A stretch of DNA of 64,000 bases from a virus: IMG/VR virus record IMGVR_UViG_3300045988_097776; one strand, given 5' to 3'. The notes beneath the pieces are model-generated. The model searched no databases. It worked only from the letters and a program-made list of their open reading frames with translations, and was not told where the DNA came from. Both the position numbers and the translations under genes were made by a program. This document shows positions 1,456 through 62,274 of the stretch, one piece after another. Each line of letters begins with the position of its first letter. Positions within the stretch are counted from its first letter, which is position 1.

Positions 1456-1550
1456 TAGGTAGCATTACATTAACCTCCTTTATATATAAATATAATACCA
1501 TATAAAATATACAATTTCAAATGCGGGGGGCATACAACGAATCGTCATAA

Positions 1551-1673
1551 TTTCTCACGGATGCGGGAAAATTTTAGGCAAGAAAATTGCCAGTCCGCAG
1601 TTGTTATATTGTTTATTTTTTTAGAAAAAAGTTTAACAAATTTTAGGACAAAGCGGGAAAATTATGGTATAAT
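1551..1673 (+). promoter_or_regulatory. plus-strand promoter (TGgTATAAT extended -10 near 1664-1672) with two direct GCGGGAAAATT repeats; candidate operator for the RHH protein
   Basis: GATGCGGGAAAATTTTAGG at about 1558 and AAGCGGGAAAATTATGGTATAAT at about 1651, directly upstream of the RHH gene. Confidence 0.4.
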
Positions 1674-1703
1674 AAAAGTGAAATATAGTAGAGAGGTGAT
1701 AAT

Positions 1704-1847
1704 ATGAATTATTCGACTGTTTCTGTTAGATTAACAGAGGAAGAAAAAAAGACTTTAGAAGAGTTTGCGAAGGATAGAGATTTAACTATGTCGCAAGTAA
1801 TTAGAAAAGCAGTAAAAGAATATATAGAAAACCATTCAAACGACTAA
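1704..1847 (+). CDS. ribbon-helix-helix (CopG/Arc-like) transcriptional regulator, 47 aa
   Basis: Product MNYSTVSVRLTEEEKKTLEEFAKDRDLTMSQVIRKAV has the typical RHH beta-strand and helix pattern. RBS GAGAGGTG upstream. Confidence 0.6.
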   Translation: MNYSTVSVRLTEEEKKTLEEFAKDRDLTMSQVIRKAVKEYIENHSND

Positions 1848-1863
1848 AGGAGACGAAAACAAA

Positions 1864-2082
1864 ATGACTAATAATTATAAGGTTTTTACTTTGAAGTTAG
1901 CTAGAAAGCTATGTGAGTTGGGATTTAAGGTTGTTGGAACAGCACCAAATGCTTAGAAACCTTGGTTAAATGTTTATCTTTTTGAAGATACTTAGGAATT
2001 AAGAGAAGCGATTGAGAAATATAAGGGACAAAGTTCGCTATTGGAGGATGATTGCCATGGCAGACAAAAGAAGAAGTCCTAA
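1864..2082 (+). CDS. small conserved phage/plasmid protein (about 72 aa) with 2 in-frame TAG codons
   Basis: Product MTNNYKVFTLKLARKLCELGFKVVGTAPNA[Q]KPWLNVYLFEDT[Q]ELREAIEKYK. Its 3-prime end overlaps the rep gene start. Confidence 0.4.
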
Positions 2083-2446
2083 TTAGCGAACAGTAAGTCA
2101 TATTCATAAAGAGCCTTGTAATACTAATAATATATATGCTAGAATTAATAAGGATGCTTTATTTGCGGCGAGAAGAGAACTTAGTGATGGTGAGTTTTCT
2201 TTATGGATATTTTTTGCTAGTTAGTCAGAGAAGTTGACAGATTATGATTTTGGCCCTACTATTATTGAGAGGGAGTTGGGTATAAAGAAAGCTAAATATA
2301 CAAATGCAATAGAAGGATTGGTAGAAAAAGGGTATTTGATTCCTCTTGAGAAGAAGGGGTATTACGATTTTTACGAAGTTCCTAAAATTATTGACGAGGA
2401 TAAATATAATTATGTCGCTCCTAACGGAGAAAAATTTTCGTTTTAA
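2057..2446 (+). CDS. replication initiator / replisome organiser, RepA_N-like winged-helix, about 129 aa, 2 in-frame TAG
   Basis: GGAGG RBS 9 nt before ATG 2057. Product ...NIYARINKDALFAARRELSDGEFSLWIFFAS[Q]SEKLTDYDFGPTIIERELGIKKAKYTNAIEGLVEKGYLIP resembles Firmicutes plasmid/phage RepA N-terminal domains. An iteron array follows immediately. Confidence 0.55.
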
Positions 2447-2760
2447 TTTTCATGTATTTCTGAGAATACCATGAAATTTCATAGTATTGTGAGAAACCTA
2501 TGAAATCATGTATTTGTTGGAAAGCTATGAAAATTTCATAGTATTCTGACAATACTATGATTTTAATTGAAAGATTTATTTCATGGTATTCCAACAATAC
2601 TATGACATGGTTTTCTGACAATACCATGAAAGTAAATAAAAATCCATTTCATGGTATTCTGACAATACCATAAATATAACATATATAAGATAACAAAGAA
2701 AAGACAACGGCGACTTTTCATGTATTTGTGAGAAAGCGATGGATAGGGAGGATAACCATG
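2447..2760. repeat. iteron array: 8 copies of a 23-bp dyad CATGGTATT-CTGAC-AATACCATG (putative origin or Rep binding sites)
   Basis: Copies start at about 2451, 2479, 2508, 2537, 2582, 2607, 2650 and 2719. Each is an inverted repeat with a 5-nt spacer, and most are followed by AAA. Confidence 0.7.
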
Positions 2761-2907
2761 GAAGATTTTCAGAGGTGGGAGGATATTCAAGGAAGTATAG
2801 ATGGGACGATGGGAGCAAATGATTTAGAAAATCGAATTGAAAAGCTGGAAGAAGGTTTTAGAAAAATCGAATCAAAAATTAAAGGGAAAAGTCAAGAAGA
2901 AGAGTAA
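2758..2907 (+). CDS. small acidic coiled-coil protein, 49 aa
   Basis: ATG at 2758; product MEDFQRWEDIQGSIDGTMGANDLENRIEKLEEGFRKIESKIKGKSQEEE; stop TAA. Confidence 0.4.
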   Translation: MEDFQRWEDIQGSIDGTMGANDLENRIEKLEEGFRKIESKIKGKSQEEE

Positions 2908-3184
2908 TGGGTAGGGTAAGAGAGATTAATAGAGGTAGAGGAAAAGGGATTATTGAATCTATATGAGGATTCGAGTTAGATTACAAGCGAAGCCATAAGA
3001 AAGTGGATAGACTATAGGGAGAATATAAGTGAAATTGGAGAAAATTAGAAGAATAGTAGAGAAAATTGGAGAAATAGTAGAGTTGGGTGCCGATCGGGTC
3101 TAGGTACAACCATCACAACACTCGTCAAAACGATCGTAAACCTAGGCTTCCGCGATTCTTCTACTTCTTTCCTCTTGTTTAATA

Positions 3185-3222
3185 GCAATAAAAAAAGAGA
3201 GGTATCTCTACCTCTCTTTTAT
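3185..3222. terminator. rho-independent terminator
   Basis: GAGAGGTA-TCTC-TACCTCTC hairpin flanked by an A-run and a T-run. Confidence 0.6.
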
Positions 3223-3692
3223 CTAAGCCCTCTCAAGAACTTAGCTACCACATCTTCATCATTGTTGCTCTTGATGGAAACGGAGACCGATTCATTTCGC
3301 ATCTCCTGAATCGCCTTCTCAATTATCTTATCAAGCTCTTCCTCTGTCGCTGCAAGTGCATCATTGATATTATTCATCCCGACAATTCGGGCAGAAATAC
3401 GAGCAGTCTCAGTGATAGCCTCTGCATATTTATTGATAGTATCAGCATCCCACTCAGGGTGAGAAGGAGCATAAATAAGAACTGCAAGCTGTCCGATATG
3501 CTCTGCATCAAGATGCTCATCATCAACAGCATTTAGAAAGTCGCACTCAATTTCATCCAAAGCTTGCTGACGAGCCTTCCGAACCTGATTCTGCTTATTA
3601 AAGACATTTAGAGCATCAGTAAACTCCTTAGCAATATCGTCGAGAGACGCACCGCCATCAAGAGCACATTTAATCATATTAGTATAATCCAT
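3219..3692 (-). CDS. hypothetical protein, 157 aa
   Basis: ORF track. AT-rich promoter (TATAAT-like) plus AAGAGGAA RBS upstream at 3693-3760. Confidence 0.45.
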   Translation of the reverse strand: MDYTNMIKCALDGGASLDDIAKEFTDALNVFNKQNQVRKARQQALDEIECDFLNAVDDEHLDAEHIGQLAVLIYAPSHPEWDADTINKYAEAITETARISARIVGMNNINDALAATEEELDKIIEKAIQEMRNESVSVSIKSNNDEDVVAKFLRGLR

Positions 3693-3699
3693 GGAATAT

Positions 3700-4440
3700 A
3701 TTCCTCTTTTCTTTCCTTTTATATTTATATTATATAATATTATTTTATAAATTGCAACCGATCGGCCCTAGCTTAAAGATCTTTTATTCTAAAATAACTT
3801 CTCTGATTGAGGCATCGACTAGAAAATTCTTAGCTAGAGAATAAGTCTTTTTAATTGTATCTATAAAAGTATAGAAAGGGTGAACATCAAGAAGATTTGC
3901 TGAAAATGAGGCAAATTTTGCTAATTTTTAAGTAATTTTATTAGAAAAATGTGCGTTTTTGCTAGATTTTTAGAGAATTTTCGCTATATTAAGAGAAAAA
4001 CAAGAGGAAAAACCTGCGGACCGATCGGTTTACCTAGCTAAAAGTAGAATTTTCTAGCTATTTTTATTATAAAATCTCGTTATTCCGATCGGCGCCGCAG
4101 AAAAATCTCTCGCTGGTATTTGTTTTTCATAGCAACATCTTTGCTATTGTTAGCTGTATAGGGGATAATGTTAGTCTTATGAACACTTGACAATTTTAAA
4201 TTTTTTTATTATAAAAAATGGACGAGAAAGCCGCTATTGCTGGACCGATCGGGATAAGATAGAAAACCGATCGGGTTATAATATAATTTTGGGAGATTCT
4301 AGACTAAGTTGCGTTATGGCCAACTTGCTATGAAAATTTTGCGCTATGGTCCGATCGGGGAAATTCGGGCCGAGTCGCCCGCGACCGGCCCGCCCGCATA
4401 TTGGGATAAAAAAACCACCCCATTTCTGGGGTGGTTCTTG
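3700..4440. other. 740-bp AT-rich non-coding region with CCGATCGG palindromes and short direct repeats; candidate origin of replication or packaging/regulatory region
   Basis: CCGATCGG at 3758, 4021, 4085, 4245, 4267 and 4351, plus one at 3090 and a CGATCG at 3131. TTTTGCTAnnTTTTTA-like direct repeats at 3911-3990. No ORF on either strand. Confidence 0.5.
4400..4436 (-). terminator. rho-independent terminator (minus strand)
   Basis: CCACCCC-AGAAAT-GGGGTGG followed by TTTTTTT on the minus strand. Confidence 0.65.
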
Positions 4441-4790
4441 TTAGCTTAGAATAACCTGGTATGCCTTGCGGATAATGACTGTTACCATGCGCGGGGGCGT
4501 GTCACAGAGAAAGCGGTCGTTTCTGATAAAATGTCCAATTCCCATATTTTGCCATAAAGTCCGGTTCAAGTCCTCATATCGAGGGGTATTATACTTAGAT
4601 AACCGGATATACCAATCATAGGAAAAAGCACTATCCACAGGCATGGTATAGTCTTTTGCCCGTTTATAATTCCTTGTATGCTCGGCGGCCCGTCTTTCGA
4701 GGTCGTTTGTTGTGCCAATCTTGAGAATATAGCGTCCCTTTACGTCTACATAATGCCCGACGTATAGAAACTCCTTTTCCCGTGTCTGTG
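4441..4790 (-). CDS. GIY-YIG nuclease domain protein (start codon uncertain)
   Basis: The listed 67-aa ORF extends upstream in frame to ...EFLYVGHYVDVKGRYILKIGTTNDLERRAAEH..., which is the GIY-YIG signature. No obvious ATG/GTG/TTG start. Confidence 0.45.
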
Positions 4791-4847
4791 TGCTAACTAT
4801 GGAATACCTCTTTTCTGGTAGGGCTGGGGTAGGCCAGCCCTACCCCG

Positions 4848-5165
4848 TTATTTTTTCGGTTTACGCTTTTGTACAAGCGTTAACTCGAAACTATCCCCAC
4901 CGATAAAAAACGCAATTTGGCGTTCCTTGTTTGTTATGGCAAGGTCAACAATCGAGAATTGACTATTTTTTTCCAAAAAGTCCGCCAGCTCTGCGATTAT
5001 GCCGCCTTTAGTTGCGTTTGGCTTGCGTTGCCGTGGTGTAAATTTGTAGGCGGTAGGGGTTTTTCTTGTGCCAGCATGGGCGAATTTCTGCGCGATTTTC
5101 GCTTTATCGGGCGATAAATCGTATTGAGTTTTTTCACCAGCTTCCACCGCCTTGTCATAGGCCAA
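4848..5165 (-). CDS. hypothetical basic protein, 105 aa
   Basis: ORF track; GC-rich. Confidence 0.4.
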   Translation of the reverse strand: MAYDKAVEAGEKTQYDLSPDKAKIAQKFAHAGTRKTPTAYKFTPRQRKPNATKGGIIAELADFLEKNSQFSIVDLAITNKERQIAFFIGGDSFELTLVQKRKPKK

Positions 5166-5302
5166 TAGCTCCGCCTCCTCCTCTGGTGTCAGTTGGAGAG
5201 GCTTATATCTCGATAACCTCTCGGCGTCAGTGATACGGCTCGATATAGTCTCACCCCCTAAGATAGAGTAGGGCGGGGATTTTCGCCCCGCCCTATACGG
5301 GG

Positions 5303-5744: not shown

Positions 5745-6060
5745 TTTGATTATATTGTACCACACTATCGGGAGTTTGTCAAGAGGTTTTTCAAACTTTT
5801 TTCAAGAGCTTTTGCCCTTTACTTGTTTGCCCTCTCTCGTTCCCCTTATAGTGTAACACACTTTGGAGAGTTTGTCAAGCCCTTTTTTATTCACTTTTCA
5901 AGGTTCCTTGCCTTGTTTTCTGTACTTATTATAGCACACTCACAAGGGCTTGTCAAGAGGTTTTTTGAAAGATTTTTGAAAGTTCGCTGTCGCTGTCTGC
6001 CGTTCGTCTCTCTCACTTTCTGTACTTATTGTACCACACCACAAAGCGGATTTCAATTGT
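5745..6060 (-). promoter_or_regulatory. array of 4 tandem near-consensus sigma70 promoters (TTGACA-17-TACAAT/TATAAT, some with TGn) reading leftward
   Basis: Minus strand: TTGACAaactcccgatagtgtggTACAAT at 5752-5780, TTGACAaactctccaaagtgtgTTACACT near 5850-5878, TTGACAagcccttgtgagtgtgcTATAAT near 5929-5956, and TTGAAAtccgctttgtggtgtggTACAAT at 6029-6057. Confidence 0.65.
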
Positions 6061-6096
6061 GAGATCCTCCAAAAGAACGTGATTTTGGGATAGGGT

Positions 6097-6120
6097 TTTT
6101 GTGCAAAATGTTGCACAAAA
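6097..6120. promoter_or_regulatory. perfect 24-bp palindrome TTTTGTGCAAAA-TG-TTGCACAAAA (operator-like) upstream of the promoter array
   Basis: The left half is the exact reverse complement of the right half. The TTGTGCAA motif recurs near other early promoters. Confidence 0.55.
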
Positions 6121-6159
6121 CGGAATCAAATTTTTTGTGCAACATTTACAAGGAAAAAA

Positions 6160-6200
6160 TCGGGTCGCGCCGCCCATGCGCGACCCGCCAAAATATAAAA
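6160..6200 (-). terminator. rho-independent terminator (minus strand)
   Basis: CGGGTCGCGC-ATGG-GCGGCGCGACCCG followed by a T-run on the minus strand. Confidence 0.6.
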
Positions 6201-6227
6201 CAAAAAAAGAAGGCCGAAGCCCTCTTT

Positions 6228-6592: not shown

Positions 6593-7417
6593 TTAAGCCC
6601 CGACCCGGATTGTCGGAATCTGCCGCAAACTTGCGGAAAGCTGACGCTGAAAATCTGTCATGGGCGGAAACTCCCGCTTGTTCTCATACAGGGCCTTTCT
6701 CATGGGCTTATGCTGGCGCATACAGTACCACATGATTTCCGCCTCAATCAGAACATCTTCCAGTCCCGTGTGGCTTTCCTCAAAATCAGTGTTGCCGGAG
6801 ATAAACCGCCACACGATTTCCGCAGTCTTGCGGGGAACGCCATTAGCCTGCACATACCCGTGTTCTTCACAGAATTTCTTATAGGTGGGCATCTGGCAAA
6901 TGACATCTTGCATCATTTTCATAATGTCCCAAATTTCCACGCTGTCAAATGGGAACCAATACCGGAATTTGGAACAAGTGACCCAACGCTGAGTGACCCG
7001 AAGGGCGTTATCATCGAAGCGGGCATTATATGCGGCGACCTCCTTAATGCCGTACCGCTCGATAGTGTCCAGCATGGCCTGACGGATTTCATAGGTAGTA
7101 GCCATCTTGCGACTGCCAGCCCGCAATTCCTCTACATACCGGGGGATTTTCCAGTTATAATAGGCCGTCCGCATTAAATCCCGCTCGTCATTGAAAATAT
7201 CCCGATTTACAAAACTTGCGGTTTCGTAAATATTGCCTTTGGTGTCTACGACCGCCCAGCCGCAGTCATATACCAAAACATTTGACATATCCATACGGAC
7301 GCGCTCTGGAGTAATAATTTCCCCATCTTCCCCAATTTCAGCGGGGACAGTCTCGGTTAATGTGTTGGCGGTTTCTGTATCAACCACCAGCACATAATGT
7401 CGGCGTTTATCAATCAT
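6593..7417 (-). CDS. DEDDh 3-prime to 5-prime exonuclease (DnaQ/RNase T-like)
   Basis: Exo I motif VLVVDTETANT, Exo II YNARFD and Exo III HTGLEDV. Length 274 aa. A consensus promoter (TTGACA-17-TATAAT) lies at 7452-7480. Confidence 0.6.
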   Translation of the reverse strand: MIDKRRHYVLVVDTETANTLTETVPAEIGEDGEIITPERVRMDMSNVLVYDCGWAVVDTKGNIYETASFVNRDIFNDERDLMRTAYYNWKIPRYVEELRAGSRKMATTYEIRQAMLDTIERYGIKEVAAYNARFDDNALRVTQRWVTCSKFRYWFPFDSVEIWDIMKMMQDVICQMPTYKKFCEEHGYVQANGVPRKTAEIVWRFISGNTDFEESHTGLEDVLIEAEIMWYCMRQHKPMRKALYENKREFPPMTDFQRQLSASLRQIPTIRVGA

Positions 7418-7590
7418 AATCTATCAAGTCCTTTCTTCTCTTGGTGGTATCATTATAGCACATTTAAGGCTTGGTGTCAAGAGGGATTTTATATTTTTTT
7501 TCTCCGTTGAAAAAGGCGTCGCGATAACCTCTCTCACAAAAGGGACTCTTTACCCTACTCTGGAGAACTTTTTCCTTTCCTCCTGACATG

Positions 7591-7720
7591 ATAATAATAC
7601 CATAGTTTCAGGATAATTGCAAGATGGCATTTTGCACAAGATTTCTGCTTGAAAATTGTGCAACATTACAACAGAAAAAAATGCGGCCCGCGGCGCTCAA
7701 GCGCGGGCCGCTGATTTTCT
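7591..7720 (-). promoter_or_regulatory. promoter-terminator cassette: TTGCAA-17-TATTAT promoter, TTGCACAA/TTGTGCAA dyad motifs and a GC-rich terminator hairpin
   Basis: About 75 bp are nearly identical to 9041-9120. Hairpin GCGGCCCGCGGCGCTCAAGCGCGGGCCGC. Confidence 0.55.
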
Positions 7721-7756
7721 TTATATAAAAAATTCTCCCATTTAGGGAGGATTTTT

Positions 7757-8796: not shown

Positions 8797-9021
8797 CTAC
8801 CTGTTGCCTATCTTGTCAACAAGTTTTTCAAAGAAATTTTTATGCCGATATACCTTATAAGGCATTGACGTATAATCCACATAAATTAGAGGGTCGCGCA
8901 AAAGAATAGCTTGCATATAGATCCCATAATTCTCTGGGGTGGTAGTACCACCAAATTGGCGGCGGTAGATTTCAGCCACAGTTAAACACTCATTAGGCCG
9001 AATAAACTTTGAAGGTTTCAT
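8797..9021 (-). CDS. hypothetical protein, 74 aa
   Basis: ORF track. Promoter TTGCAA-17-TATTAT at about 9041-9075, a duplicate of the 7600 cassette. Confidence 0.4.
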   Translation of the reverse strand: MKPSKFIRPNECLTVAEIYRRQFGGTTTPENYGIYMQAILLRDPLIYVDYTSMPYKVYRHKNFFEKLVDKIGNR

Positions 9022-9204
9022 TTAGTGTCCCTCCTTCTTTCTGTACTAATAATACCATAATTTAAGGATAATTGCAAGATGACATTTTGCACAAGATTTC
9101 AAGTCAAAAATTGTGCAGAACTTACAAACAAGAAAACTCGGCGCGCTGTGAGCGTCAGCGCGCCGTCGAAATTTTGGTATAAAAAAAGAGGGCCGAAGCC
9201 CTCT

Positions 9205-9684
9205 TTAATTTTCTGCAAATTGAGCTAGAAATTGCGCAGAAAGTCGAACCATATCATGCGCTGATTCTTTATCGTTTTTATAGCAAATAAAGCCGATTAC
9301 CTCACCTTCTGCAATAATAGGAGTAACAAACAACGATTTTCCCTTCCATTCAGTACCCCAATTACGAATATTGAACCATTCATCCGGGGTCTTTGACATT
9401 CCGAAGGGGCGAGGGCCGCACAAAAGACTTGAATTATCAAAAACCGATGCTAAAATGCCGTTAATGCTTAAAACTTTTTGAATATGTGCGGCCTGAGGAG
9501 CAAAAGAAGATAGTAGGGAATATTTCTTGAAAACCACCCCGCCATCTTCAATAAAGATTTCTAGCGGGTCGCCTTCCCGAATATTCATATTCCGACGAAT
9601 TTCCTTAGGAATTACTACCCGGCCGAGATCATCAATGCGCCGCACAATGCCAGTTACTTTCATTTTTTTTATTAGAGAGGGCAA
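9205..9684 (-). CDS. SpoVT/AbrB-family transcriptional regulator (swapped-hairpin N-domain plus GAF-like C-domain)
   Basis: N-terminus MKVTGIVRRIDDLGRVVIPKEIRRNMNIREGDPLEI is the AbrB/MazE/SpoVT signature. Length 159 aa. Terminator at 9170-9205. Confidence 0.7.
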   Translation of the reverse strand: MPSLIKKMKVTGIVRRIDDLGRVVIPKEIRRNMNIREGDPLEIFIEDGGVVFKKYSLLSSFAPQAAHIQKVLSINGILASVFDNSSLLCGPRPFGMSKTPDEWFNIRNWGTEWKGKSLFVTPIIAEGEVIGFICYKNDKESAHDMVRLSAQFLAQFAEN

Positions 9685-11078: not shown

Positions 11079-11324
11079 TTTCTTTTACTCCCTTTCTTGA
11101 GGGCTTTTGTTCTCCCCTCTTGATGGTTTAAGTATATCAGAATGAGAGAGAAAAGTCAAGCGATTTTGGGAAATTTCTTTCCGTCAATTTCACCAATAAA
11201 TCGAGCCAAAATTTGTGCAAATTACCTCTTGACAAAAAATTCCGGCCGCTGCGCTCATGCGCGGCCGGCTGAACAATATATTTTGAATTGGAAAAGAAAT
11301 TCCTCCCATTTTGGGAGGAAAATC

Positions 11325-11462
11325 TCAATCTACATATTCTCGATTTAAAACTTTTACAACCTCTTCAGGTTTACGTCGAGACCGGAAAAGAGCATCTTCA
11401 TAGGAATAACCAGAGATATTGTCGGTCGAGCCATTTTCAAGCAAAATCTCAAATTCATACAT
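11325..11462 (-). CDS. hypothetical small protein, about 45 aa (internal start of the listed ORF)
   Basis: A promoter -10 and TSS fall inside the listed ORF. AAGGAAG RBS before the internal ATG (MYEFEILLENG...). Confidence 0.3.
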   Translation of the reverse strand: MYEFEILLENGSTDNISGYSYEDALFRSRRKPEEVVKVLNREYVD

Positions 11463-12666: not shown

Positions 12667-12922
12667 TTCTTTTACTTCCTTTCAAATTCTTTTTGTGGTC
12701 TGTCTCTCTGGACAAGTATAATATACCATACCCACAAAGGAATGTCAAGCGATTTCGGGAGAAAAATTCTCGGCAGATTGCACAAACTTTTGGCCATATA
12801 ATTGTTGAAACTGCCGAACAAACAAAAATTCGGGCCGCGGCGCACGCTGGCGGCCCGGCGAAAAGTCAATATGGGAAAGTGCACAAAAATATCCGGCAAT
12901 CTTTGTGTAGATTACCGGATAG

Positions 12923-14170: not shown

Positions 14171-14592
14171 GTCTTTTAAGACTTGTCAATACTTTTTTTG
14201 AAAATTTTTAATTTTCAAGGTACATTGAGTTTTGCCCTGTCCTCTACTGGACAAGTCCAGTTTACACCCGTTTGCCCTGTTTGTCAATAGTTTTTTGAAA
14301 TTTCTTTCTCTCTCTTTTGCACAAAATAAACATTGTTCAACTGTGCAATTTGCATAAATCCTTTACGCGCGCGTATTCCTTTAGGGCGTGGCTTTTTACT
14401 TTCATACTTTAATGAGTGAAAGAGGCTGACTACACTTCAGCACTTTACCATGTGAAAGGGGAGGGTGTATTTTGGGAAAAACTGGAAATTTTTTCGCAAA
14501 TTTGTTCTGCCACGCCATTTCAAAATCTAAATCGTACTTTCAATCTCAATAACGAAAAAAAGATGAAAGGCTAAACTTTTAACCTTTCATCT

Positions 14593-14759: not shown

Positions 14760-15197
14760 TTAATGGTATAATTGATATTTTCTGCCAATCTTATCAATCT
14801 CCTCAGCTTCCATTGGCCTAAATCCAATACAAGTGAGAGTCCCTTCAGGACTCTCTTTTTCCAGCTCTGTCCTGCAAGCATCGTAAATCAAAAAGTAATC
14901 TTTATACTCCTCCATACCGAGCTCTTTAGCTGCTTCGACCGCCCGCAATAAATCATTCTTATTTTTCGCTCGACAAACAACTTTAGTTTCTGCTTCTATT
15001 ATCCAATTATGGTATAAATCTGTATCGAGACTTACATTCACATGATACATAATACCATCTCTTTCCCTAACTACTTCTTTGCTTCCCCAAAGTATTTTCT
15101 CTAAAAGAAAAGCAATAGAAGCATGGGAAACTTGTGCGGCCAGCTTACCTGGAGACATATTTAAATCTTTTCTAGCTATAATTAACTGTTTATACAT
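14760..15197 (-). CDS. peptidyl-tRNA hydrolase, PTH2 family
   Basis: IIARKDLNMSPGKLAAQVSHASIAF matches the PTH2 R-x-D-L-x-M-x-x-G-K-x-A-A-Q-x-x-H-A core. The C-terminal half aligns with the human PTRH2 fold (…KVV..A.....L......A...G…). Confidence 0.8.
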   Translation of the reverse strand: MYKQLIIARKDLNMSPGKLAAQVSHASIAFLLEKILWGSKEVVRERDGIMYHVNVSLDTDLYHNWIIEAETKVVCRAKNKNDLLRAVEAAKELGMEEYKDYFLIYDACRTELEKESPEGTLTCIGFRPMEAEEIDKIGRKYQLYH

Positions 15198-15946
15198 TCT
15201 TTACCTGCTTTCAAAAATGCCCTAAAATTCTGGGAGTTGCGGTCAGGAATTGCAAAATAAATATTTGGAATATTATAATTGCGGGCTGCGCCTATGAGCA
15301 AGGTTGCGACCGTATACGGATCTTGCATAAAAACTCCACAACCCCAGGCTCCCGCGATTAGATTTTCCACACCGTTTTCCTCAGCAATCTGATACATAAA
15401 GTGAATTCGATCTTCAAGAACTCTATCATTCTCGCTCTTACTCACACTCTGGTATCTATGCGCCGTTCGGAAATTCGGGGCCGCACAAGTTATAATATCT
15501 GCTTCCTTTTGTTTGTCATTGCGCTCGAATACTACGCTAGGAGAATACAGCGCTCTATTTAAATATAAAGCCTTATTTAATCTCTGTCGATTCCATGCGT
15601 AATACGTTTCATCAAAAGCAAGAAGGATAGGGTAAAGATTGGATTCATGACAAAGAGCCTCTTCCTGCGCGGGACTACCTCCTAGAAAAAATCCACCCGG
15701 GTTTTTATAACTGGCGTAGTTAAGAATTGCTGTTCTACCATTGTTAGATAAATTGAATAGGCAAGATACACTATCCATATCTGTTAGAGTAAAAGCTGGT
15801 TTCTGATTGCCGGATTCATGCTGTGTAAAAGAATCTGGACTATATACATATGTGCGCTCGATAGATAATTTAGTGTTTGCGGCAAGTCTAGTTTTAATAT
15901 CTTCATAATGCGCTCGTGCCTTGATTGCGCGCTCTTGTTTTGTCAT
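15182..15946 (-). CDS. macrodomain-fold poly(ADP-ribose) glycohydrolase-like protein (bacterial PARG/DUF2263 family)
   Basis: NPGGFFLGGSPAQEEALC matches the bacterial PARG signature G-G-x(6-8)-Q-E-E. Length 254 aa. AAAGGAGG RBS. Overlaps the PTH2 start, so the two probably form an operon. Confidence 0.55.
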   Translation of the reverse strand: MTKQERAIKARAHYEDIKTRLAANTKLSIERTYVYSPDSFTQHESGNQKPAFTLTDMDSVSCLFNLSNNGRTAILNYASYKNPGGFFLGGSPAQEEALCHESNLYPILLAFDETYYAWNRQRLNKALYLNRALYSPSVVFERNDKQKEADIITCAAPNFRTAHRYQSVSKSENDRVLEDRIHFMYQIAEENGVENLIAGAWGCGVFMQDPYTVATLLIGAARNYNIPNIYFAIPDRNSQNFRAFLKAGKECINS

Positions 15947-16145: not shown

Positions 16146-16505
16146 TCAATGCATGGGTTCATATTTACACCCCTTTATTCTACAATCTAGTAAACACTGT
16201 CCTGTAGCTCCATCACAGGGAATTGCATCAGGGTAATCCTCAAAATAAGACGAAGCTAATAGGACTTCATACCCGAGTTCTCGCAATATTCTTTCTGCGA
16301 TATATCTATTCCTCAGCTTTACCCATTCTTCTCTATTTATTTTTGTTTCTCTGTATATTTCTCTGGATTTCTCCATATCTACTGTTATGCTGCCATCAAT
16401 ATTAGTCTTAAATGTTGAATCCTGTGTACGATAAAATTCTCGAAAAGGATTTTCAATATGAAGAACCTCTCTAGCATAATTATCAAAATCTTCTGAGAAT
16501 TTCAT
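16146..16505 (-). CDS. hypothetical protein, about 119 aa
   Basis: ORF track; the likely start ATG at 16503-16505 overlaps the FolD stop (TAATG). Confidence 0.4.
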   Translation of the reverse strand: MKFSEDFDNYAREVLHIENPFREFYRTQDSTFKTNIDGSITVDMEKSREIYRETKINREEWVKLRNRYIAERILRELGYEVLLASSYFEDYPDAIPCDGATGQCLLDCRIKGCKYEPMH

Positions 16506-17296
16506 TATCTTCGCGCCTGTTTCGCTAACTATAAGCAATTTTTCATCAACCCCAATCTAGTCAATAATCCCACCCCTCCGGGCACAGGAGTTGACCACAC
16601 TTCATTTCTCTTTGCAATATTTTCAAGTTCAACAAAATCGCCTTGAATAAAATTCGCCTAATTTCTACGAATACCAACATCAACAACAATAGCGTGAGGG
16701 CAAGCCTCTCTTGTCAAAGTAAAATCTCCAACTGCGGATACTACTAAATCTGCTATTCTTGCTAAATAAAGCTTCGCATTTACATTTGTTTTACTGTGAC
16801 AGATAGATACAGTCATATTTCTCGCCAACAACTCTTTCGCCATTGGCTTACCAACTATATTACTTCTACCTAATATTAAAGCACTTTTACCTTCATACTT
16901 AAAACCACAGTCATCAAGATAGTCTACTATTCCTCTTACCGTTGCCGGTAAAACAAGAGTAGAAGAAGTTAAACCGTCGCAGTCTTTTATCGTAGGAATT
17001 ACATCAATAGAAAAAGAACTCAATGAATCTCTTAGTGGCATTTGTGCTATAATACAATCAGTATCTATACTATTTATGTAATTATTTAAATCTGCGGGAG
17101 TCCAGTGTTCTGGAACTTTAATCACGCTTACTGGCCATCCTAATTCATTAAAGTCGTCTACTTTTTTCTATATATAAATCTAATTTCCGGCATCCCCGTT
17201 AGTTGCATCAATTATGGTCAATGATGGCTTGACATCGGACTGCCGCAATTCATCTTTCTATTGTTTAAAATATTCTTTTATGTTAATCTATTGCAT
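16505..17296 (-). CDS. folD: bifunctional methylenetetrahydrofolate dehydrogenase/cyclohydrolase FolD, 263 aa, 3 in-frame TAG
   Basis: The listed 155-aa ORF ends at a TAG. Reading through gives ...GRSNIVGKPMAKELL...VVDVGI...PVPGGVGLLT, the FolD C-domain. Upstream through two more TAGs gives the N-domain MQQINIKEYFKQQKDELRQSDVKPSLTIIDATNGDAGNQIYIQKK. Confidence 0.8.
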
Positions 17297-17621
17297 CTGG
17301 TTCTAGCCCCCATGGATCATCAGTATCATAATCAATCATATCATAGAATGATATTTTGTTATTAGGCGTTATTTCTAAAACCTAATGTGGGATACAACAT
17401 ATTTCATAATCAGAATCTCTATCTAAATTATATGAAGCATAAATATGCAAAGCCGTTGGTCTTGCATTATTGATATTTTGAACATCCCATAAGTCAACAG
17501 TGTTTTTATGTCCAAGTATGTCTGTTAGAACTTCTGGCTATACTGCTATGCTTATAATTAAAATGTTAAAGTAATACTATGCTCGTTTTGGTAATTCAGA
17601 ATAGGGCGTATCGAAAAACAT
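17283..17621 (-). CDS. hypothetical protein, 112 aa, 3 in-frame TAG; first gene of the leftward early transcript
   Basis: GGAGG RBS 10 nt before the ATG (cat at 17619-17621 on plus). Reading through TAG gives one ORF ending at TAA 17283-17285 and overlapping the folD start. Confidence 0.45.
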
Positions 17622-17736
17622 GATGGCGAAGCCTCCTATCTTATTTCTATAATTATATTATATCATTTTTAAATAAATTGGTCAAATTTTATTATTTATT
17701 TGTAAAGTTTTGTCAAATATAATAGGAGATGATAGA

Positions 17737-18450
17737 ATGAAGAAAACACATTGTATTTATATGCATAAAAACAAGATTAATGGGAAAATTTATGTTGGTC
17801 AAACATTTTAGGATAATCCTAATGCTAGATGGCAAAACGGGCATGGATATATAAAACAGCCAAAGTTTTTTTCAGATATTATAAAATACGGATGGATAAA
17901 TTTTGAACATATTATTTTAGAAGAAAACTTAACGCAATAGGAGGCGAATGAAAGAGAAAATTTTTGGATTCAATATTTTGATAGTTGTAAAAATGGGTAT
18001 AATACAATTTCAAAGAATAATAGATCAGAGGTATAGAAAAAAACAACAAATAGCCTTATTGTATGCTTAAATACAAATAAATCATATAAAACATTAAAAG
18101 AAGCGTCTTTGGATACCGGAGTTGATCCATCTGCAATTTCAAGATGTTATGGAGGATAGCGTAAAAGTGCAGGAATAATAAATGGTGTTCCTGGGTTTTG
18201 GATTTTAACAACATCGGATAAAAGCCTTATTAATAAAATAAAAAATAATTATAATGATGCTATAAGAAAGATAGTTTGTGTTGAGACTTCTAGAATTTTT
18301 AATTCTTTAGATGAGGTAATAGAATATTGTGGATTGCCAGTATCTTCTTCAAATAGAGCAAGATTAAAAAGTATTTTAAAATATAAGACAAATTCTTCTT
18401 TTGGGCGAGATAAAGAGTTAAATATAAAATTACATTGGAGTTATCTATAA
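17737..18450 (+). mobile_element. GIY-YIG homing endonuclease with two NUMOD-like HTH modules, 237 aa, 4 in-frame TAG
   Basis: N-terminus MKKTHCIYMHKNKINGKIYVGQTF[Q]DNPNARWQNGHGY (GIY...YIG...R...H...E). C-terminal repeats ...LKEASLDTGVDPSAISRCYGG[Q]RKSAGIINGVPGFWI... AGGAG RBS. Confidence 0.7.
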
Positions 18451-20748: not shown

Positions 20749-22494
20749 ATGGCGCTAAAAGATTTATTAAACCTCTCGAACAATAATAAAAAAATTGGAC
20801 TCTCAGAAGAAAGAGTTCGAGCTATAATTCCAGTTGCAAGATAGTATGTAGCATTTTGGAGAGAGTATCCAGATATGTTTATTGATTTCTTGTAGACTGG
20901 TGGAGATGAAACTAGGAAAAAAGAAATTAACTTTTATTTTTACTAGAGAGTTTTCTTGCGGGCCGCCATGCGATATAAGTATGTATACATGGTATTCCCC
21001 CGTGCTTATTCTAAATCATTTCTTTCTGTAATGGTGCTTATGTGTAGATGTATTTTATATCCTGGATGTAAGTTATTCATTACTTCTGGGGGAAAAGAAC
21101 AAGCTGCGGGAATTGCTAAAGAAAAAGTCTAGGAAATATGTAATGCAATCCCTGCACTCCAAAGAGAAATTGATTGGAGACGAGGCAAGACGCAGGAAGG
21201 AAAAGATTATTGTAAATATATCTTCAAAAACGGTTCCTACTTTGATAACGTAGCAGCTAGAGAATCCTCTCGTGGTAAACGTAGACATGGAGGACTTATT
21301 GAGGAGTGTGTCGGCGTAGATGGAGATATTCTAAACGAAGTTTTAATTCCTTTGATGAACGTTGATAGAAGATGTTTAGATGGCTCTGTTCATGAAGAAG
21401 AAACACTTAATAAATCCTAGATTTATGTTACTACTGCGGGATGGAAGAATACGTTCCCCTACAATAAACTTATTACTCTCCTTGTGCGCATGATATTAGA
21501 ACCAGAAAAGAGTATTGTTATGGGCGGAACATGGAGAATTCCTGTGTTAGTAGGATTGCAATCCCGCAATTTCGTATAGGAACTAAAATAGGACGGTACT
21601 TTTAATGAAGCTTCATTCGATAGAGAGTATGAATCTAAGTGGAGTGGAACTGTTGAAGATGCTTTCTTTAATGGAGATGCTTTTGATAGAAGTAGAAAAC
21701 TCCTTTAGCCTGAATATGAATCGTCTGGAAGATCTTCTGCACAGGCTTATTATGTTCTTTCTGTTGATGTAGGTAGAAAGAAATGTCAATCTGTTGTTTG
21801 TGTCTTTAAGGTAACTCCTTAGTCACAAGGACCTGCTATAAAGTCTTTGGTAAATATATATACTATGGACGATGAACATTTTGAAGATTAGGCAATTAAG
21901 TTAAAGAGATTATATTATAATTATAAGGCTAAGATTATTGTAATCGACGGTAATGGCCTTGGCGCCGGATTGATGGATTATATGGTTAAACCTTAGATAG
22001 TACCTGATACCAATGAAGTTTTTCCTGACTTTGGTGTAGCTAATGATGAAGATGGTGAGTATAAGCGGTTTAGGACAGAAAACACAGAATATGATGCCAT
22101 CTATGAAATTAAGGCTAACGCTCCTATTAATACCGAGGCGCATAGTAATGTTTAGACACAATTAAGAGCGGGAAAACTTAGATTTTTGATTGATGAAAAA
22201 GTTGCAAGAAATAAATTGCTTGGTACTAAAAAAGGTTAGGCTATGAAACCAGAAGAACGGGCAGAATATTTAAAACCGTTCACTTTAACTTCTATATTAA
22301 GAGAAGAAATGCTGAATTTGCGAGAAGAAAATGAAGGCGTGAATATTATTTTGAAACAAGCAAATAAATCCGTGCCTAAAGATAAATTCTCTGCGCTTGA
22401 ATATGGGCTGTATTATATTAAATAGGAAGAAGATAGTAAACGCAAGCGTAAAAGTAGAAGATTTTCAGACTTTATGTTTATGAGCGAGGTGTGA
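20749..22494 (+). CDS. terL: terminase large subunit, about 581 aa, about 14 in-frame TAG
   Basis: AAGGAGG RBS. The read-through product carries ...FYFY[Q]RVFLRAAMRYKYVYMVFPRAYSKSFLSVMVLM... and ...IVIDGNGLGAGLMDY..., typical of PBSX/Terminase_6-type large terminases. Sits upstream of the portal. Confidence 0.6.
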
Positions 22495-56815: not shown

Positions 56816-56862
56816 AAAAAATGGGGAGAACCTTGAAATTAAGGTTCTCCCCATTTTTTTTT
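56811..56862. terminator. bidirectional rho-independent terminator separating convergent transcription units
   Basis: A9-GGGGAGAACCTT-GAAATT-AAGGTTCTCCCC-T9. Confidence 0.75.
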
Positions 56863-57319: not shown

Positions 57320-57959
57320 AGTTTAATTCAATAGCTTTTAATTTATCTATTGAATCAGCTTCGAATATCTAAGTTTTATATTCTTGCATTAAATGATATT
57401 TGGGATATACCACATTTGAAATAGCTAAACTTAGAGCGGATAATTGCTCTAAACTCCATGGCACACATTCTTCGTGTCGAGCGTGCCACTCAAGCGTAGG
57501 ATTTTCTACTTCAGCCGCGAGAGCGACTTGATATTGATTGAGATTTAAGCTAATCTCAGACTGGTCCTCCTACGTAATTCCATATTCTTTTCCATCAACC
57601 CAAGTTAGTGGGTGGGTAGCAAGATACTCTGCGAATAGTTTCTTGTTTTCCTCTTGTTTGTCATACTTTGCCTAATCTAAATCAGAAGTGAATGTTCCAT
57701 CTTCTTGATTATATATTGAATAATTAGGAGTAACATCTGATGGAATTGTTTCTATCTCTAATACTTTTACAGCATTAGATTGATTTAATACATCGGCTTT
57801 AATTAGAGTATAATGTGTATCTCCATTTGAGCCGATAACCCCAGTTCCCTCTTCTTCCTCGCAGGCAACGACAATACCATTTGAGGATTGCAGTTTAATG
57901 TAACGTGCTTCTGAAAGAATATCAACTACTACATTCTCTCTATTTAATAGAATATACAT
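57297..57959 (-). CDS. DUF4376-like protein (tail-fiber assembly/chaperone-like), about 220 aa, 4 in-frame TAG
   Basis: The listed 95-aa ORF continues through TAGs (…ATHPLTWVDGKEYGIT[Q]ED[Q]SEISLNLN[Q]Y…). Family assignment is from memory and tentative. Confidence 0.3.
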
Positions 57960-58135
57960 TACTTTATTTCAACTCCTTTAAATAATGAACGAAAATAATT
58001 GTCCATATCTTGAATTATATAAAAACAAGTTCCTTTAGAAATATGTGCCCTCCAACCTTGATAGGATTTCTAAATTTCATCTGTTGAAATTTTACCCTCT
58101 AACCATAGCGCTTGCATTTTCTTTAACTTTCTGCG

Positions 58136-59176
58136 CTAATGAGCCACTTTCTTTTTAAAAGGAATTTGTATTATATGATTAGTGTCTGTGAGATAAAAGT
58201 TCCACTTTAAGTATTTTAATGGAGCGTGACGTTTGCCGTCCGCATGAATAGGAGAGATTCTAGTAATAGTAGTCTTTTTCTTATTCATCTTTAATCCTTG
58301 CTTATTTAAGCGAACTTCTATTCTCTTTTCACATTCGGCTAAGTATTGACTGTCATTGTGGAATAAATATAAATCATCCATATAACGACCATAATACTTA
58401 ATATGTAACTCTTCTTTGATGAAGTGGTCAATTTCGTTCAATGCTAGCAATGCGAATAATTGTGATGTTTGACTTCCTAATCCAAGACTTTTATTATCAT
58501 ATTCATAGTATTTGCGGCCAGGCTTAAAATTAGTGGTACTAATTCTCGTGTATTTGTGCCGTTTACTAATATAATAATCTTTTCCTGGTATGGGAGAGGA
58601 ATCTTTTGTTAGCTTAAAAGAAAATGTATCTATTAAATAACAGCATAGTTGATAAATTCTTTTATCTTTTATCAAACGTTTAGCCGCTTTCTTTAAAGAT
58701 TTATGGTCAATAGAATCAAAATATTTTTGAATATCAATTCTTAACCCATAAAAATCTTTTCCTAATCCATATTCTCTATGAGCTTGTTGAAGATGTTTCT
58801 TTACTCTTTTTAAAGCAAAGTCTATTCCTTTTCCTCTTAAAGTAGCACAATTATCGTAGATAAATCTAGGAGTTAATTCTGGTAATAAAACTTGTTCACA
58901 TAACGCATTTTGTACCAGTCTGTCGTTGATATGACACGCTCTTATATCTCTTGGTTTGCCTCGTTCGATTATCGAAAAACAACTAAACACAAGCTATTCG
59001 TATTCACACGCTCGCAGATCAGCTTCTGTTTTTAAAATTGTTTCTATCCTATTCTCTTCAAAATTAATTGTACTATCTTTCCATCGAACGTTTCGGCATA
59101 CCTTATAAGACGCATCATACATAGTGTCAAAACTACAAAAACGCTCGAAAGTAGTATCTTGATTTATTTCAGACAT
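58136..59176 (-). CDS. diversity-generating retroelement (DGR) reverse transcriptase, 346 aa, 1 in-frame TAG
   Basis: The two listed ORFs (59176-58994 and 58990-58136) are one frame joined by TAG 58994-58996. RT motifs FDSIDH and YMDD (GRYMDDLYLF). The DGR-specific motif LGLGSQTSQ (I/LGxxxSQ) replaces the group-II-intron QGxxxSP. AAGGAG RBS 6 nt before the ATG. Confidence 0.85.
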
Positions 59177-59585: not shown

Positions 59586-59615
59586 AAAGATACAGAACTT
59601 AACCGCAGAAAAATA

Positions 59616-60191: not shown

Positions 60192-61949
60192 TTATCCAAT
60201 GACGAAAGCCGGCGCGAGCCCGTAGCTGGTGCCGTAGGGGTTGGAGTTCGCAGATCCACCGGTGTCGACAAAGCAAACGTGGTTCGAGTGGCTGTAGTAA
60301 CGGGACCGTTCCCAATACCACATCGTTGAATTCGTCAACGAACCATTGGCGTTCATCTGGTATTTAACTCTAGTAGAGTTGCTTGTATAGTAACTATAGG
60401 CCGTCTAACTTCCTCCAACAGTCCACTCCTAATAAGAACTAGCATAGCCGCTAGAGCTAGTAAATCCCATCTCACATTCAGAAGGTAGCCAACATTTTGC
60501 AGTTGTTTGAACATCCGCAGTATTATTCTAATTACCATTACTAGCAGAACTTGTCTTCTTAGTAACAGATTTAATAGAAGCGGTTGCGCTACATCTATTA
60601 CCAAAATCATTGCACAAGGATTGAGCGGTTGAACCATTCCATAACGCGTTACTACCAAATGATGTACTGTTAGGTAAAGTTCCCGCAGTCTGGAAAGTTA
60701 ATGTTCCAGTTCCATCCTAATCAGCACCAATACAAATCATTGTAGCAGCATTTCCCCCGAGGACCGCAGAAGAAAGACTTACGAGTTTCTTCTTGCCTAC
60801 ACAATTTTTTCGCTCTCCAGATGACGCTTTAGCAGCCCATGTTTTTAATCCAGCCCACCATTTAGCATCACCAACAGTAGTTTCAGAACCCCACTCCCAA
60901 TAGCTAGCTGTTACAGTAACAGTCTTATTTCCTGGGGCTATATAGTTGGTTCCCTCTGCGACTTTAATAGTAATAGTAGTAGAAGAAATAGCCGTACTGC
61001 CATCACCTTTAATTGTAAGAACATTTCCACTTAAAGACAAAGTTAAACCAGAAACGCTAGTTGGACTATAACTAATAGCTCCATCTCCAGAACGAGTAAT
61101 GGTAACCTTTACACCGGCACTATAGTTATCTCCATCAAGAGCTACAGAAGTCGGATTTACTGTTAAACTTCCAGCAGCTTTATTAATAGTCCAATTTACA
61201 TCAAGATTTGATGTAGTTCCATCGGCCCATCTATAATTACTATTTAGTGTGAAAGTAGCAGTATAGGTTCCAGCGTTAGTCGCGGAAGTTGTCCCGCCAA
61301 TCGTCATATAAGTGGTATTAAAGTTATTCCAATAGGAAGCACCACTTACTGATTGGCTACTACCAGTATAGGTAAGATTATTCTTCCATGTTGGTTTCGG
61401 CACCGATTTTCTTTCAACAGTAACATTGAAAGAAGCAGACTGAGTTACTCCATTTTCTGTGTAAGAAACAGTAATTTTCTAGGTGCCAACCGCAGTTAAT
61501 GACGTTGGAGAGCAACTATACCCGGTAACCGCGGATGATGTACTATCAGAATAACTTGCTGTAACTACCATTCCTGTTGTTTGGAGAGTGTCTCCATATT
61601 CATAAGTTGTCTTAGTTGGGTTAGTAGTAACCTAAATACTAAGAAGTTTATGAATAACAGTAATGTCTTGAGTGGTCTAACAAGTTTCTCCTAATTCAGA
61701 GTAAGTAATTGTTACTTTAGTAACCCCATCAGTTAAAGGGTTTGGAGTAACTTGATACCCAGTTACTTCTGCTGTTGTTACAATAACGCCGTCCATGCCG
61801 TAAGATGCGGTGACTACCATTCCCGCGGGATTAAAAGTATCACCAGCAAGATAGCTCGTTTTAGTAGGGGGAGTGGTTACTTCAATTTTTACAAGAGAAA
61901 GAGAACCTCCACCTTTTCCACCCTATTCAGCTAAAATACATTTAGGCAA
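60192..61949 (-). CDS. DGR target protein: N-terminal tandem bacterial Ig-like domains plus C-terminal C-type-lectin/FGE-fold variable domain, about 585 aa, about 8 in-frame TAG
   Basis: TTG start with AGGAGGT RBS at 61949. Listed ORF 60717-61403 is in frame and joins through TAGs to …AKCWLPSECEMGFTSSSGYASSY[Q]EWTVGGS[Q]TAYSYYTSNSTRVKY[Q]MNANGSLTNSTMWYWERSRYYSHSNHVCFVDTGGSANSNPYGTSYGLAPAFVIG, then TAA 60192. VR covers the last 35 codons. Confidence 0.8.
60209..60308 (-). repeat. DGR variable repeat (VR), 100 bp, at the 3-prime end of the target gene
   Basis: 17 of 35 TR adenine positions are substituted (to C, G or T) and there are 0 of 65 differences at non-adenine positions. GC-rich IMH-like 3-prime end GGGCTCGCGCCGG. 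Confidence 0.9.
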
Positions 61950-62274
61950 ATTATTTACCTCCTTCTATCTAGCTATTGTTTCAAACAAATCTAAACTACT
62001 AGATAGAAGGTCGAGGATGGAAGCGATCTTCGCTCCAGTCTTTTAGAAAGCCATAAACAATTTCCGAGAAAAAGTACACTTTTTAACAGGAAAAATACTT
62101 TTTCTTCCTAGATAACAAAAAATTGGGAAAAGGGTAAGAAACCCTTTTCCCAAAAGTGAGTATCTTACTCTTTTCAAATATACTTGAAAAAGAGTATAGA
62201 TTGATTATATATGTTTGACCAAGTTCAGTAAAGTGTACTTTTTCAAAAGTTTTAGATGAAAGGAGAATTATGCT

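Follow-up and report, generated by a model that had tools for sequence, protein, structure and literature searches.

Why should a phage genome carry one exact 8-bp palindrome seven times within 1.3 kb and nowhere else over 64 kb? The question is raised by IMG/VR record IMGVR_UViG_3300045988_097776, of which a stretch of 64,000 nucleotides (nt), hereafter the window, was analysed. The window belongs to a ~147-kb human-gut phage of Firmicutes in which TAG is a sense codon. The palindrome is CCGATCGG, and its seven copies, here called S1 to S7 from left to right (Table 1), all lie inside positions 3090-4358. A first-pass annotation of the window had reported seven copies and none elsewhere, and both an exact count and a shuffle enrichment test bear this out. 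In 100 dinucleotide-preserving shuffles of the window 0.23 copies were expected, and seven or more were seen in 0 of 100. The probability that seven random sites share 1.27 kb of 64 kb is ~4e-10 by simple arithmetic. When one mismatch was allowed, 9 sites were found against 7.1 expected, and the two additional ones fall within coding sequences (15463, 26096). Near matches are not in excess, so the copies are exact and lack a halo of degenerate ones.

Smaller repeats reported from the same region fared unevenly. Every CCGATCGG site does contain GATC, and the additional CGATCG at 3131 is real: all eight CGATCG of the window fall in 3091-4357, this one included. A longer form of the palindrome was said to occur three times, but GGACCGATCGG was counted only twice (4018, 4242). 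TAGCTA, listed as a repeat, occurs about as often as chance predicts (34 observed, 30.6 expected). The TTTTGCTA..TTTTTA direct repeat is present at 3916-3939 and 3957-3980, the two units being 75% identical. Consecutive sites in the window are 668, 263, 64, 160, 22 and 84 bp apart, and these spacings differ between clades of related phages. The repeat is 8 bp long and irregularly spaced, unlike the periodicity of CRISPR or tandem repeats, and with 7 of 7 copies in one locus of 64 kb it is neither over-represented nor avoided along this stretch as a whole. A literature search for CCGATCGG returned only primers and unrelated matches.

The answer proposed here, held at slightly less than an even chance, is that the copies form a cluster of binding sites for one two-fold-symmetric DNA-binding protein, in a control region that closes the leftward early operon. 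Dimeric proteins of the winged-helix or ribbon-helix-helix type would be examples. What the analysis shows is a genuine cluster of exact sites that is conserved among relatives and placed at promoters. These features suggest that a protein binds there; a winged-helix neighbour may be that protein, and its effect may be repression or activation. The first-pass annotation had offered four options (a lytic origin, a methylation- or SeqA-like controlled region, a binding array for a phage regulator and a pac site). The regulator array is the best supported of these, by exact palindromes in DNA that is ~50% diverged, by placement at promoters and by turnover of sites.

Conservation was followed through related loci in IMG/VR. 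A query with the exonuclease-like protein encoded next to the array retrieved 23 loci (76-98% protein identity) that had not been selected by motif. In 22 of them the homologous place has three to seven copies of CCGATCGG, with hardly any in the rest of the ~20 kb; the remaining locus stops at the GC hairpin beside S7. A nucleotide probe over S7 and this hairpin added ~60 related loci, in which the conservation of S7 is partly forced by the probe covering it. S7 is independently present in the loci retrieved by protein, and it is absent in L128/L129 and L243. The L243 contig was considered as a counter-example and set aside, since it stops ~200 nt beyond the hairpin and is uninformative for the other sites. 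A seventh clade (G), reached only through a protein homologue of the neighbouring gene w5303, has the hairpin and seven copies of CCGATCGG. In total ~85 related arrays were collected, representing at least seven clades and carrying five to seven exact copies.

Within these arrays the core sites S1, S2, S3, S4 and S7 keep their relative positions though the surrounding DNA is ~50% identical. S5 and S6 vary in number and place by clade, and one-mismatch intermediates (CTGATCGG, CCGATCAG, CCGAGCGG) were found. Eleven clade representatives are 48-64% identical to the window over the region. The only blocks of at least 6 nt that are invariant among them are S1, S4, the -10 box of the gene embedded in the array, an AAAATTT box and the two outer-stem arms of the hairpin. 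In alignments the 8-mers stand as islands amid diverged flanks. The first-pass annotation had reasoned that a motif equally frequent elsewhere would point to restriction avoidance or methylation, but CCGATCGG is essentially confined to the one locus, both in the window and in the ~20-kb loci of relatives. The only extra copies in the latter are found in a gene for a poly(ADP-ribose) glycohydrolase (PARG)-like protein and, once, in L128/L129. The clade B copies outside the array were examined as possible extra sites and are incidental, because they lie within the PARG-like coding sequence.

How the sites stand to promoters, all of which were predicted from sequence, is the second line of evidence. 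At the promoter of the embedded gene the centre of S2 is found at -39.5 in clade A, -40.5 in B and D, -59.5 in F, -60.5 in C, -61.5 in E and about -61.5 in G. S2 thus lies at ~-40 or ~-60, about two helical turns apart, as expected of a DNA-bound factor that has to face RNA polymerase. In clades D and F, S7 is centred at +34.5 of a perfect consensus minus-strand promoter with an extended -10. In clade E, S4 is centred at +25.5 of a perfect consensus plus-strand promoter, also with an extended -10, and lies in the loop of a covarying hairpin. Opposite strands of the region are therefore driven by consensus promoters in different clades. S1 and S3 lack a consistent promoter. The exact 8-mer is kept across these unlike contexts: beside a -35 box, in a promoter spacer, after promoters, in the arms of inverted repeats and in a hairpin loop.

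Under the proposed reading, a protein on S2 would sit at the edge of the embedded-gene promoter, and further molecules would occupy the sites that lie within neighbouring promoters or a short way downstream of them. The molecules at S1...S2, S3/S4, S5/S6 and S7 may cooperate through DNA looping. The whole control region could then be switched at once, for instance to damp or stop immediate-early transcription. Winged-helix proteins encoded on both flanks of the array are in line with this. The features fit a symmetric protein on double-stranded DNA better than a structural RNA.

Table 1. Coordinates of the CCGATCGG array, its control elements and neighbouring genes in the window
Feature	Position	Strand	Remark
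TAG-as-sense regions	17600-57000 (+), 56800-62000 (-), 1500-2900 (+)		ORF comparison
TAG-containing gene converging on S1, weak winged-helix (HTH_36) match	2012..2446	+	weak second candidate binder or initiator
Purine-rich tandem repeat, 2 x 21 nt	3038..3079	.	just upstream of S1
S1, core CCGATCGG	3090..3097	.	conserved ~75-nt block beyond embedded-gene terminator
S1', degenerate second copy ACGATCGT	3131..3136	.	CCGATCGT or CCGAGATCGC in other clades
Left arm TTTCCTCTTGTTT of perfect 13-nt inverted repeat	3168..3180	.	
Intrinsic terminator of embedded gene	3193..3220	-	hairpin usable on both strands
Embedded gene, 157 aa	3219..3692	-	bracketed by S1 and S2
Embedded-gene promoter TTGCAA-17-TATAAT	3729..3757	-	predicted; -10 invariant across clades
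S2, core site	3758..3765	.	abuts -35 box
AT-rich spacer with TTTTGCTA..TTTTTA direct repeat	3916..3980	.	
Right arm AAACAAGAGGAAA of the same 13-nt inverted repeat	3998..4010	.	
CTGCGG-A-CCGATCGG: core site S3 (4021-4028) and YGCGG flank motif	4014..4028	.	
CCGATCGG-CG-CCGCAG: core site S4 (4085-4092), flank motif inverted	4085..4100	.	S4 invariant in all clades
Promoter-like TTGACA-17-TATAAA	4187..4215	+	clades A and B only; by eye, omitted by scan because -10 ends in A
S5, clade-specific	4245..4252	.	CTGATCGG in 99%-identical L001/L144
Promoter-like TAGAAA-16-TATAAT	4260..4287	+	S6 (4267-4274) in spacer
Weak promoter-like TTGGCC-16-TAGAAT	4296..4323	-	downstream of S7 on minus strand
Invariant AAAATTT box	4333..4339	.	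in place of TTGCACAA/TTGTGCAA boxes of other early modules
S7, core site	4351..4358	.	7-8 nt from GC hairpin
GC hairpin CGGGCCG(A+12 nt)CGGCCCG	4366..4392	-	one per genome
Terminator of leftward early operon, ACCACCCC/GGGGTGGT and T-run	4408..4440	-	by eye
w4848, basic neighbour, ~137 aa	4851..5261	-	~1,700 homologues; fold not recognised
w5303, 133 aa, N-terminal helices and C-terminal winged helix	5303..5704	-	candidate binder
Early-operon modules	~6007-6227, 7534-7754, 8980-9200, 11106-11326, 12671-12891, 14210-14430	-	
DnaQ-like exonuclease (phrog_20187)	6593..7417	-	profile match; query that retrieved the 23 related loci
Early and adjacent genes, including PTH2, PARG-type, FolD-like and GIY-YIG-like	14760..15197 (-), 15182..15946 (-), 16505..17335 (-), 17710..18450 (+)		
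Terminase large subunit (TerL)	20749..22494		SPbeta type

Read on the minus strand, the direction of early transcription, the region begins with the operon terminator, the GC hairpin, S7, the AAAATTT box and the weak promoter. S6, S5, S4 and S3 follow, then the AT-rich repeats, S2, the promoter, the gene of 157 amino acids (aa), its terminator, S1', S1 and the tandem repeats. Two TAG-containing genes converge on the array. The first-pass annotation had placed all seven sites in an AT-rich non-coding region of ~740 bp. This holds for six of them, which lie in the largest non-coding gap of the window (3693-4440, 748 bp), but S1 is found beyond the 157-aa gene. The AT-richness is also partial: 3628-4020, between S2 and S3, is 72-76% AT (top ~6% of the window, not its extreme), but the right end of the gap is GC-rich. 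S3 and S4 are separated by a 56-nt spacer and flanked by an inverted YGCGG/CCGCR motif. The 13-nt inverted repeat and the similarity adjacent to it indicate that the S1'/S1 (minus) and S3/S4 (plus) modules are inverted copies around the gene.

Both ends of the region are in flux. The tandem repeats at 3038-3079 and at homologous positions in L122-L234 change in unit and copy number between close relatives, and in other clades the units are (GAGAAATA)n, (GGCGT)n or 18-19 nt long. In some clades the 18-nt unit makes a TTGATT-17-TAAAAT promoter, which would put S1 at +9 to +16. At the other end, the 99%-identical relative L001 has a two-gene cassette of ~900 bp (4405-5299) directly after the GC hairpin (window ~4385-4394), with the short direct repeats GACCGGCCCGCC / GGACCGCCCGC, both GC-rich, at its borders. 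Across clades the hairpin is followed by at least five different sequences, which marks the place as a hotspot of cassette exchange.

The setting of the array is an early operon with a regular plan. The leftward operon (17.3 to 4.4 kb, minus strand) consists of small genes essentially without in-frame TAG. It contains at least five intergenic modules, each composed of a terminator, a GC hairpin with a U-tract, an inverted TTGCACAA...TTGTGCAA pair and an extended -10 promoter. The hairpin sequence differs per module, and the hairpin beside S7 is the last of the series. S7 occupies the place that the TTGCACAA box has in the sibling modules, where the pair lies upstream of the promoters. TTGCACAA is the commonest 8-mer of the early 18 kb (9 copies) and is the top word in the distant relatives L263, L264 and L243 as well. 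It is probably a second, family-wide operator.

L263/L264 (IMGVR_UViG_3300033463_000022, 147,056 bp) is a relative that lacks CCGATCGG. It encodes a w5303 homologue (50% identical) and, in all, two divergent paralogues of the winged-helix protein. Another palindrome, (C)GCCCGGGC(G), occurs 16 times in its early operon, each time with a variable terminator-like hairpin on one side and a TTTGTGCAA box with a promoter on the other. These copies match the GC hairpins in position and not the S sites, and they are therefore not counted as a swap of operator specificity. Similarity between the ends of this genome was considered as a terminal repeat and turned out to be only the repeated intergenic modules of 127-155 nt.

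Which protein might read the sites? The foremost candidate is w5303, which is conserved beside the array in all array-bearing clades. Its structural model has a predicted local distance difference test (pLDDT) score of 89, and the best PDB matches are nearly all winged-helix DNA-binding domains, with weak E-values. An argument from its recognition helix was tried and dropped. The GCCCGGGC-bearing phage has the changes Q104S and R111N, but clade G also has Ser104 and retains CCGATCGG, and together with the position of the GCCCGGGC copies at the GC hairpins this weakens the argument. The gene w4848, between w5303 and the array, is 77-88% identical between clades and has an evident start, other than ATG, GTG or TTG, ~30 residues upstream of the mechanical start of its open reading frame (ORF). 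The product of the TAG-containing gene at 2012..2446 matches HTH_36 (E=0.0045) and phrog_775 (E=0.0037, a 'replication helicase' hint), both below family thresholds. An AbrB/SpoVT-like protein (9205..9684) was rejected as binder, since several clades with the array lack its gene. The 157-aa embedded protein is likewise unlikely to be the binder: it is acidic (pI 4.45), and searches of Pfam, PHROG, PDB profiles and PADLOC gave no match. Its fast evolution is seen in an identity of 21-39% between clades, and it looks more like a regulated product than a regulator.

A number of observations weigh against a regulator array. The two-turn argument essentially comes down to two independent configurations, and the embedded-gene promoter has a good -35 and a good -10, so an activator is not needed. 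Eight base pairs kept without any degeneracy are unusual for operators, and the spacing of the sites is irregular. Co-occurrence singles out none of the candidate binders. The protein w5303 is also encoded in 3300033463_000022, which is without CCGATCGG; the clade G protein has Ser for the near-invariant Gln104 and yet the full array is kept; and w5303 could equally read the family-wide TTGTGCAA boxes. The embedded protein, for its part, is acidic and matches no known fold family. The material covers 64 kb of one genome and ~20-kb pieces of its relatives. Finally, two cases point to a possible role of the 8-mer in RNA. On the minus strand of clades A and B, CUGCGG-CG-S4...S3-U-CCGCAG is followed by a GUUUUUCC U-tract. 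The same samples contain an unrelated family of gut phages with low GC and the standard code (family 2: L025, L033, L041, L073, L105, L106), in which two CCGATCGG copies form a 9-bp terminator stem (ggtgCCGATCGGg...CCGATCGGcttttt, -17 to -21 kcal/mol) with a U-run. This terminator comes ~25 nt after a TATAAT and its left flank resembles that of S1 in the window. When relatives of family 2 were sampled through a neighbouring protein, only the locus itself was recovered.

These last cases lead to a rival in which the copies act at the RNA level, as arms of terminator, attenuator or RNase III-type processing hairpins in early transcripts. The 8-mer is self-complementary, so any two copies in one transcript pair as an 8-bp GC-rich helix on either strand, and each copy would pair with several alternative partners, which would account for the exact conservation. 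The family 2 stem is of this kind, the S4/S3 repeat of clades A and B with its U-tract resembles the GC hairpin modules of the early operon, and adjacent copies come in pairs (S6/S5, S4/S3, S1'/S1). In clades D and F strong predicted minus-strand promoters would carry transcription across the sites, and in clade E a plus-strand one would do so; there S4 lies in the hairpin loop directly after the promoter, and the local hairpin has one compensatory pair (CCCAG/TTGGG vs CCTAG/TTAGG). However, S2 and S7 are without a nearby partner, and S2 lies upstream of its promoter. A hairpin with a U-tract is not seen at S1, S2 or S7, nor at S4/S3 in clade D, which lacks the U-tract after S3. An ordinary stem would drift by compensatory change like the other GC hairpins of the operon, but here the stem does not change. 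For the S1 block neither strand yields a consensus fold (alifold -3.3 kcal/mol, covariation 0), which removes the block as a structured or tRNA-like RNA. A long covarying hairpin at S3/S4, the first idea formed by eye, was ruled out as well: the flanks pair over 3.56 bp within a sequence and 3.53 bp across clades (shuffled controls: 1.75), as a common inverted motif would and a co-evolving helix would not. Rfam gave no match at gathering score in the window, and at permissive thresholds on 2800-4600 only chance-level ones. Taken as a whole, the RNA reading is rather unlikely. A mixed form peculiar to this recoded lineage is improbable, in which some factor reads the 8-mer as double-stranded DNA and the copies also pair with one another in the transcribed strand. 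In that form occupancy or pairing would time the switch from TAG-free early genes to TAG-containing ones. In an alternative to it, also improbable, the reader would be a host factor common to this lineage and to the unrelated gut phages whose terminator stem is built from the 8-mer.

A replication origin, or a partition or handcuffing locus, is unlikely too, if the least so of the alternatives. The palindromes would be initiator sites flanking an AT-rich melting stretch, the nearby promoters would provide transcriptional activation and the neighbouring winged-helix protein would be the initiator. The array does have several identical sites (five to seven, where at least three are looked for) in the largest non-coding gap and at one locus per genome, and the stretch between S2 and S3 combines its high AT content with direct repeats. 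Its two modules are inverted around a gene, a layout that recalls the iteron arrays flanking repA in P1- and F-type replicons. Winged-helix genes stand on both flanks, with the weak HTH_36 and 'replication helicase' hints, and the exonuclease-like gene is nearby. Against this, the spacing of 22 to 668 bp is irregular and clade-dependent and shows no helical phasing of the iteron type, DnaA boxes are absent inside the array, and no initiator-type match reaches its family threshold. An origin would not need sites that coincide with promoter elements, as some of these do. The GC-skew check suggested in the first-pass annotation was run on the window, and the cumulative minimum is found at ~17.5 kb and not at the array; together with the AT maximum of the window it places the compositional extremes at ~17.5-17.6 kb. 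What speaks for an origin are generic features. The packaging alternative, a pac or cos region with the palindromes as sites of the small terminase subunit and the invariant GC hairpin as cleavage region, is very improbable. In phage P1, pac consists of seven TGATCA/G elements within ~160 bp inside the pacase gene and acts via Dam methylation, and seven short GATC-containing palindromes at one locus are reminiscent of it. Each genome has a single invariant GC-rich element, the place directly beside the hairpin gains and loses cassettes, and several metagenomic contigs break within the array. In contrast to P1 pac, however, the array spans 1.27 kb and encloses a gene, and it lies ~16 kb from TerL, on the far side of the early operon. 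The contig breaks are scattered, full-length contigs begin at different places, and the GC hairpin is a member of the terminator-like series. Only a little less improbable is a link to methylation or restriction, with GATC or the CGATCG core as a methyltransferase target and the cluster as a SeqA- or Dam-like reader of methylation state, or with a host factor that other gut phages use as well. GATC occurs at less than half its expected frequency in the window (109 observed, 243 expected), and the nine copies in the array are therefore kept against the genome trend; all CGATCG of the window lie there too. The use of the same 8-mer by an unrelated phage family from the same samples fits a host-encoded reader. 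But the conserved unit is the full 8-mer and not GATC or CGATCG, and a scan of ~35 window proteins revealed no methyltransferase. The shortage of GATC, on its own account, suggests pressure from a GATC-specific host restriction system.

The placement of the phage, outlined at the start, comes from several observations. In the standard code, ORFs are abnormally short: only 34 reach 150 aa (maximum 465 aa). Dropping TAG as a stop raises the number to 60 (maximum 2,904 aa). With TAG as sense, the plus strand from 17.6 to 57 kb resolves into long genes. A tRNA search of the window, with a suppressor tRNA in mind, found none. TerL is ~50% identical to that of SPbeta-like large siphoviruses of Firmicutes (Enterococcus EF1 and H1, Geobacillus E3, Brevibacillus Sundance YonF), and the AbrB/SpoVT-type protein is a further pointer to this phylum. 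The relatives are almost all from human-gut metagenomes, many are 143-149 kb long, and two were binned into metagenome-assembled genomes of Eubacterium and Oscillospiraceae. A megablast of the region against GenBank phages gave no nucleotide match.

Other genes of the window were noted in passing. Among the early and adjacent genes are a PTH2 peptidyl-tRNA hydrolase (E=1.9e-23) and a microbial-type poly(ADP-ribose) glycohydrolase (E=8e-27), and by eye a FolD-like protein with seven TAG codons and a GIY-YIG endonuclease-like gene were assigned. A diversity-generating retroelement is present near the right end. Its reverse transcriptase (57959..59176, minus strand) has a YMDD motif seen by eye, and its repeats lie at 59483-59585 and 60206-60308. 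The template repeat is 103 nt long, the variable repeat is at the 3' end of a 598-aa target gene (60192..61988, minus strand), and the mismatches between the two are nearly all at template adenines.

Several known systems resemble the array in part. MetJ binds 'metbox' operators, which are tandem, directly adjacent and degenerate 8-bp palindromes, and in lambda OL/OR is a case of looping between multiple operators. They offer an analogy for the array in the 8-bp palindrome as dimer unit, in several cooperating copies and in sites at promoters. Unlike metboxes, the array sites are 22-668 bp apart and never degenerate, and there is no sequence relation. Aca-type autoregulation uses inverted-repeat operators at the promoters of anti-defence (acr) genes. 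The likeness is in the very strong predicted early promoter, the small, acidic and fast-evolving product and the inverted-repeat sites at the promoter. However, no aca-like gene is found in the same operon and the array sites extend far past the promoter. An anti-defence role of the 157-aa protein is pure conjecture. PeSL cassettes, an early promoter with a stem-loop, sit between early genes of T4-type phages. Here too, modules of a terminator-like hairpin, a conserved box and an early promoter recur along the early operon, and cassettes are exchanged beside S7. This likeness concerns the setting of the array, as the CCGATCGG sites are confined to the last module and the DNA past it. HIP1 (GCGATCGC) of cyanobacteria is an 8-bp palindrome with the same CGATCG core but is over-represented genome-wide, genes included, whereas CCGATCGG is confined to one locus.

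The closest functional analogue would be a repeated operator array such as that of Bacillus phage SPbeta. There a 15-bp operator, SPBRE, is found over ~10 promoters genome-wide and is bound by the master repressor MrpR (YopR), a repressor with a tyrosine-recombinase fold (PMC10516654). Both cases have a short motif repeated in non-coding DNA at promoter regions of a large Firmicutes siphovirus, and the terminase here is of SPbeta type. The difference is that SPBRE is 15 bp long and dispersed, whereas here an exact 8-bp palindrome is found in a single 1.3-kb locus. The present motif is shorter, exact, palindromic and clustered, and therefore is not a member of the SPBRE/MrpR system. An MrpR-like protein did not come up either, although no search was aimed at one.

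The array thus belongs to a familiar class of elements, in a phage lineage that is undescribed, and if it is simply an operator array, it would represent ordinary biology in a new phage. It marks the control region of a common, uncultivated lineage of the human gut, with ~147-kb genomes found in dozens of metagenomes and TAG read as sense in late genes. CCGATCGG together with the adjacent invariant hairpin is a specific probe for this lineage in sequence data. An exact 8-bp site in five to seven copies is also an unusually clean experimental handle on the regulator. That regulator might show how a fast-evolving early protein, possibly an anti-defence factor, is controlled, and it would show how early transcription is controlled in phages that change genetic code mid-infection.

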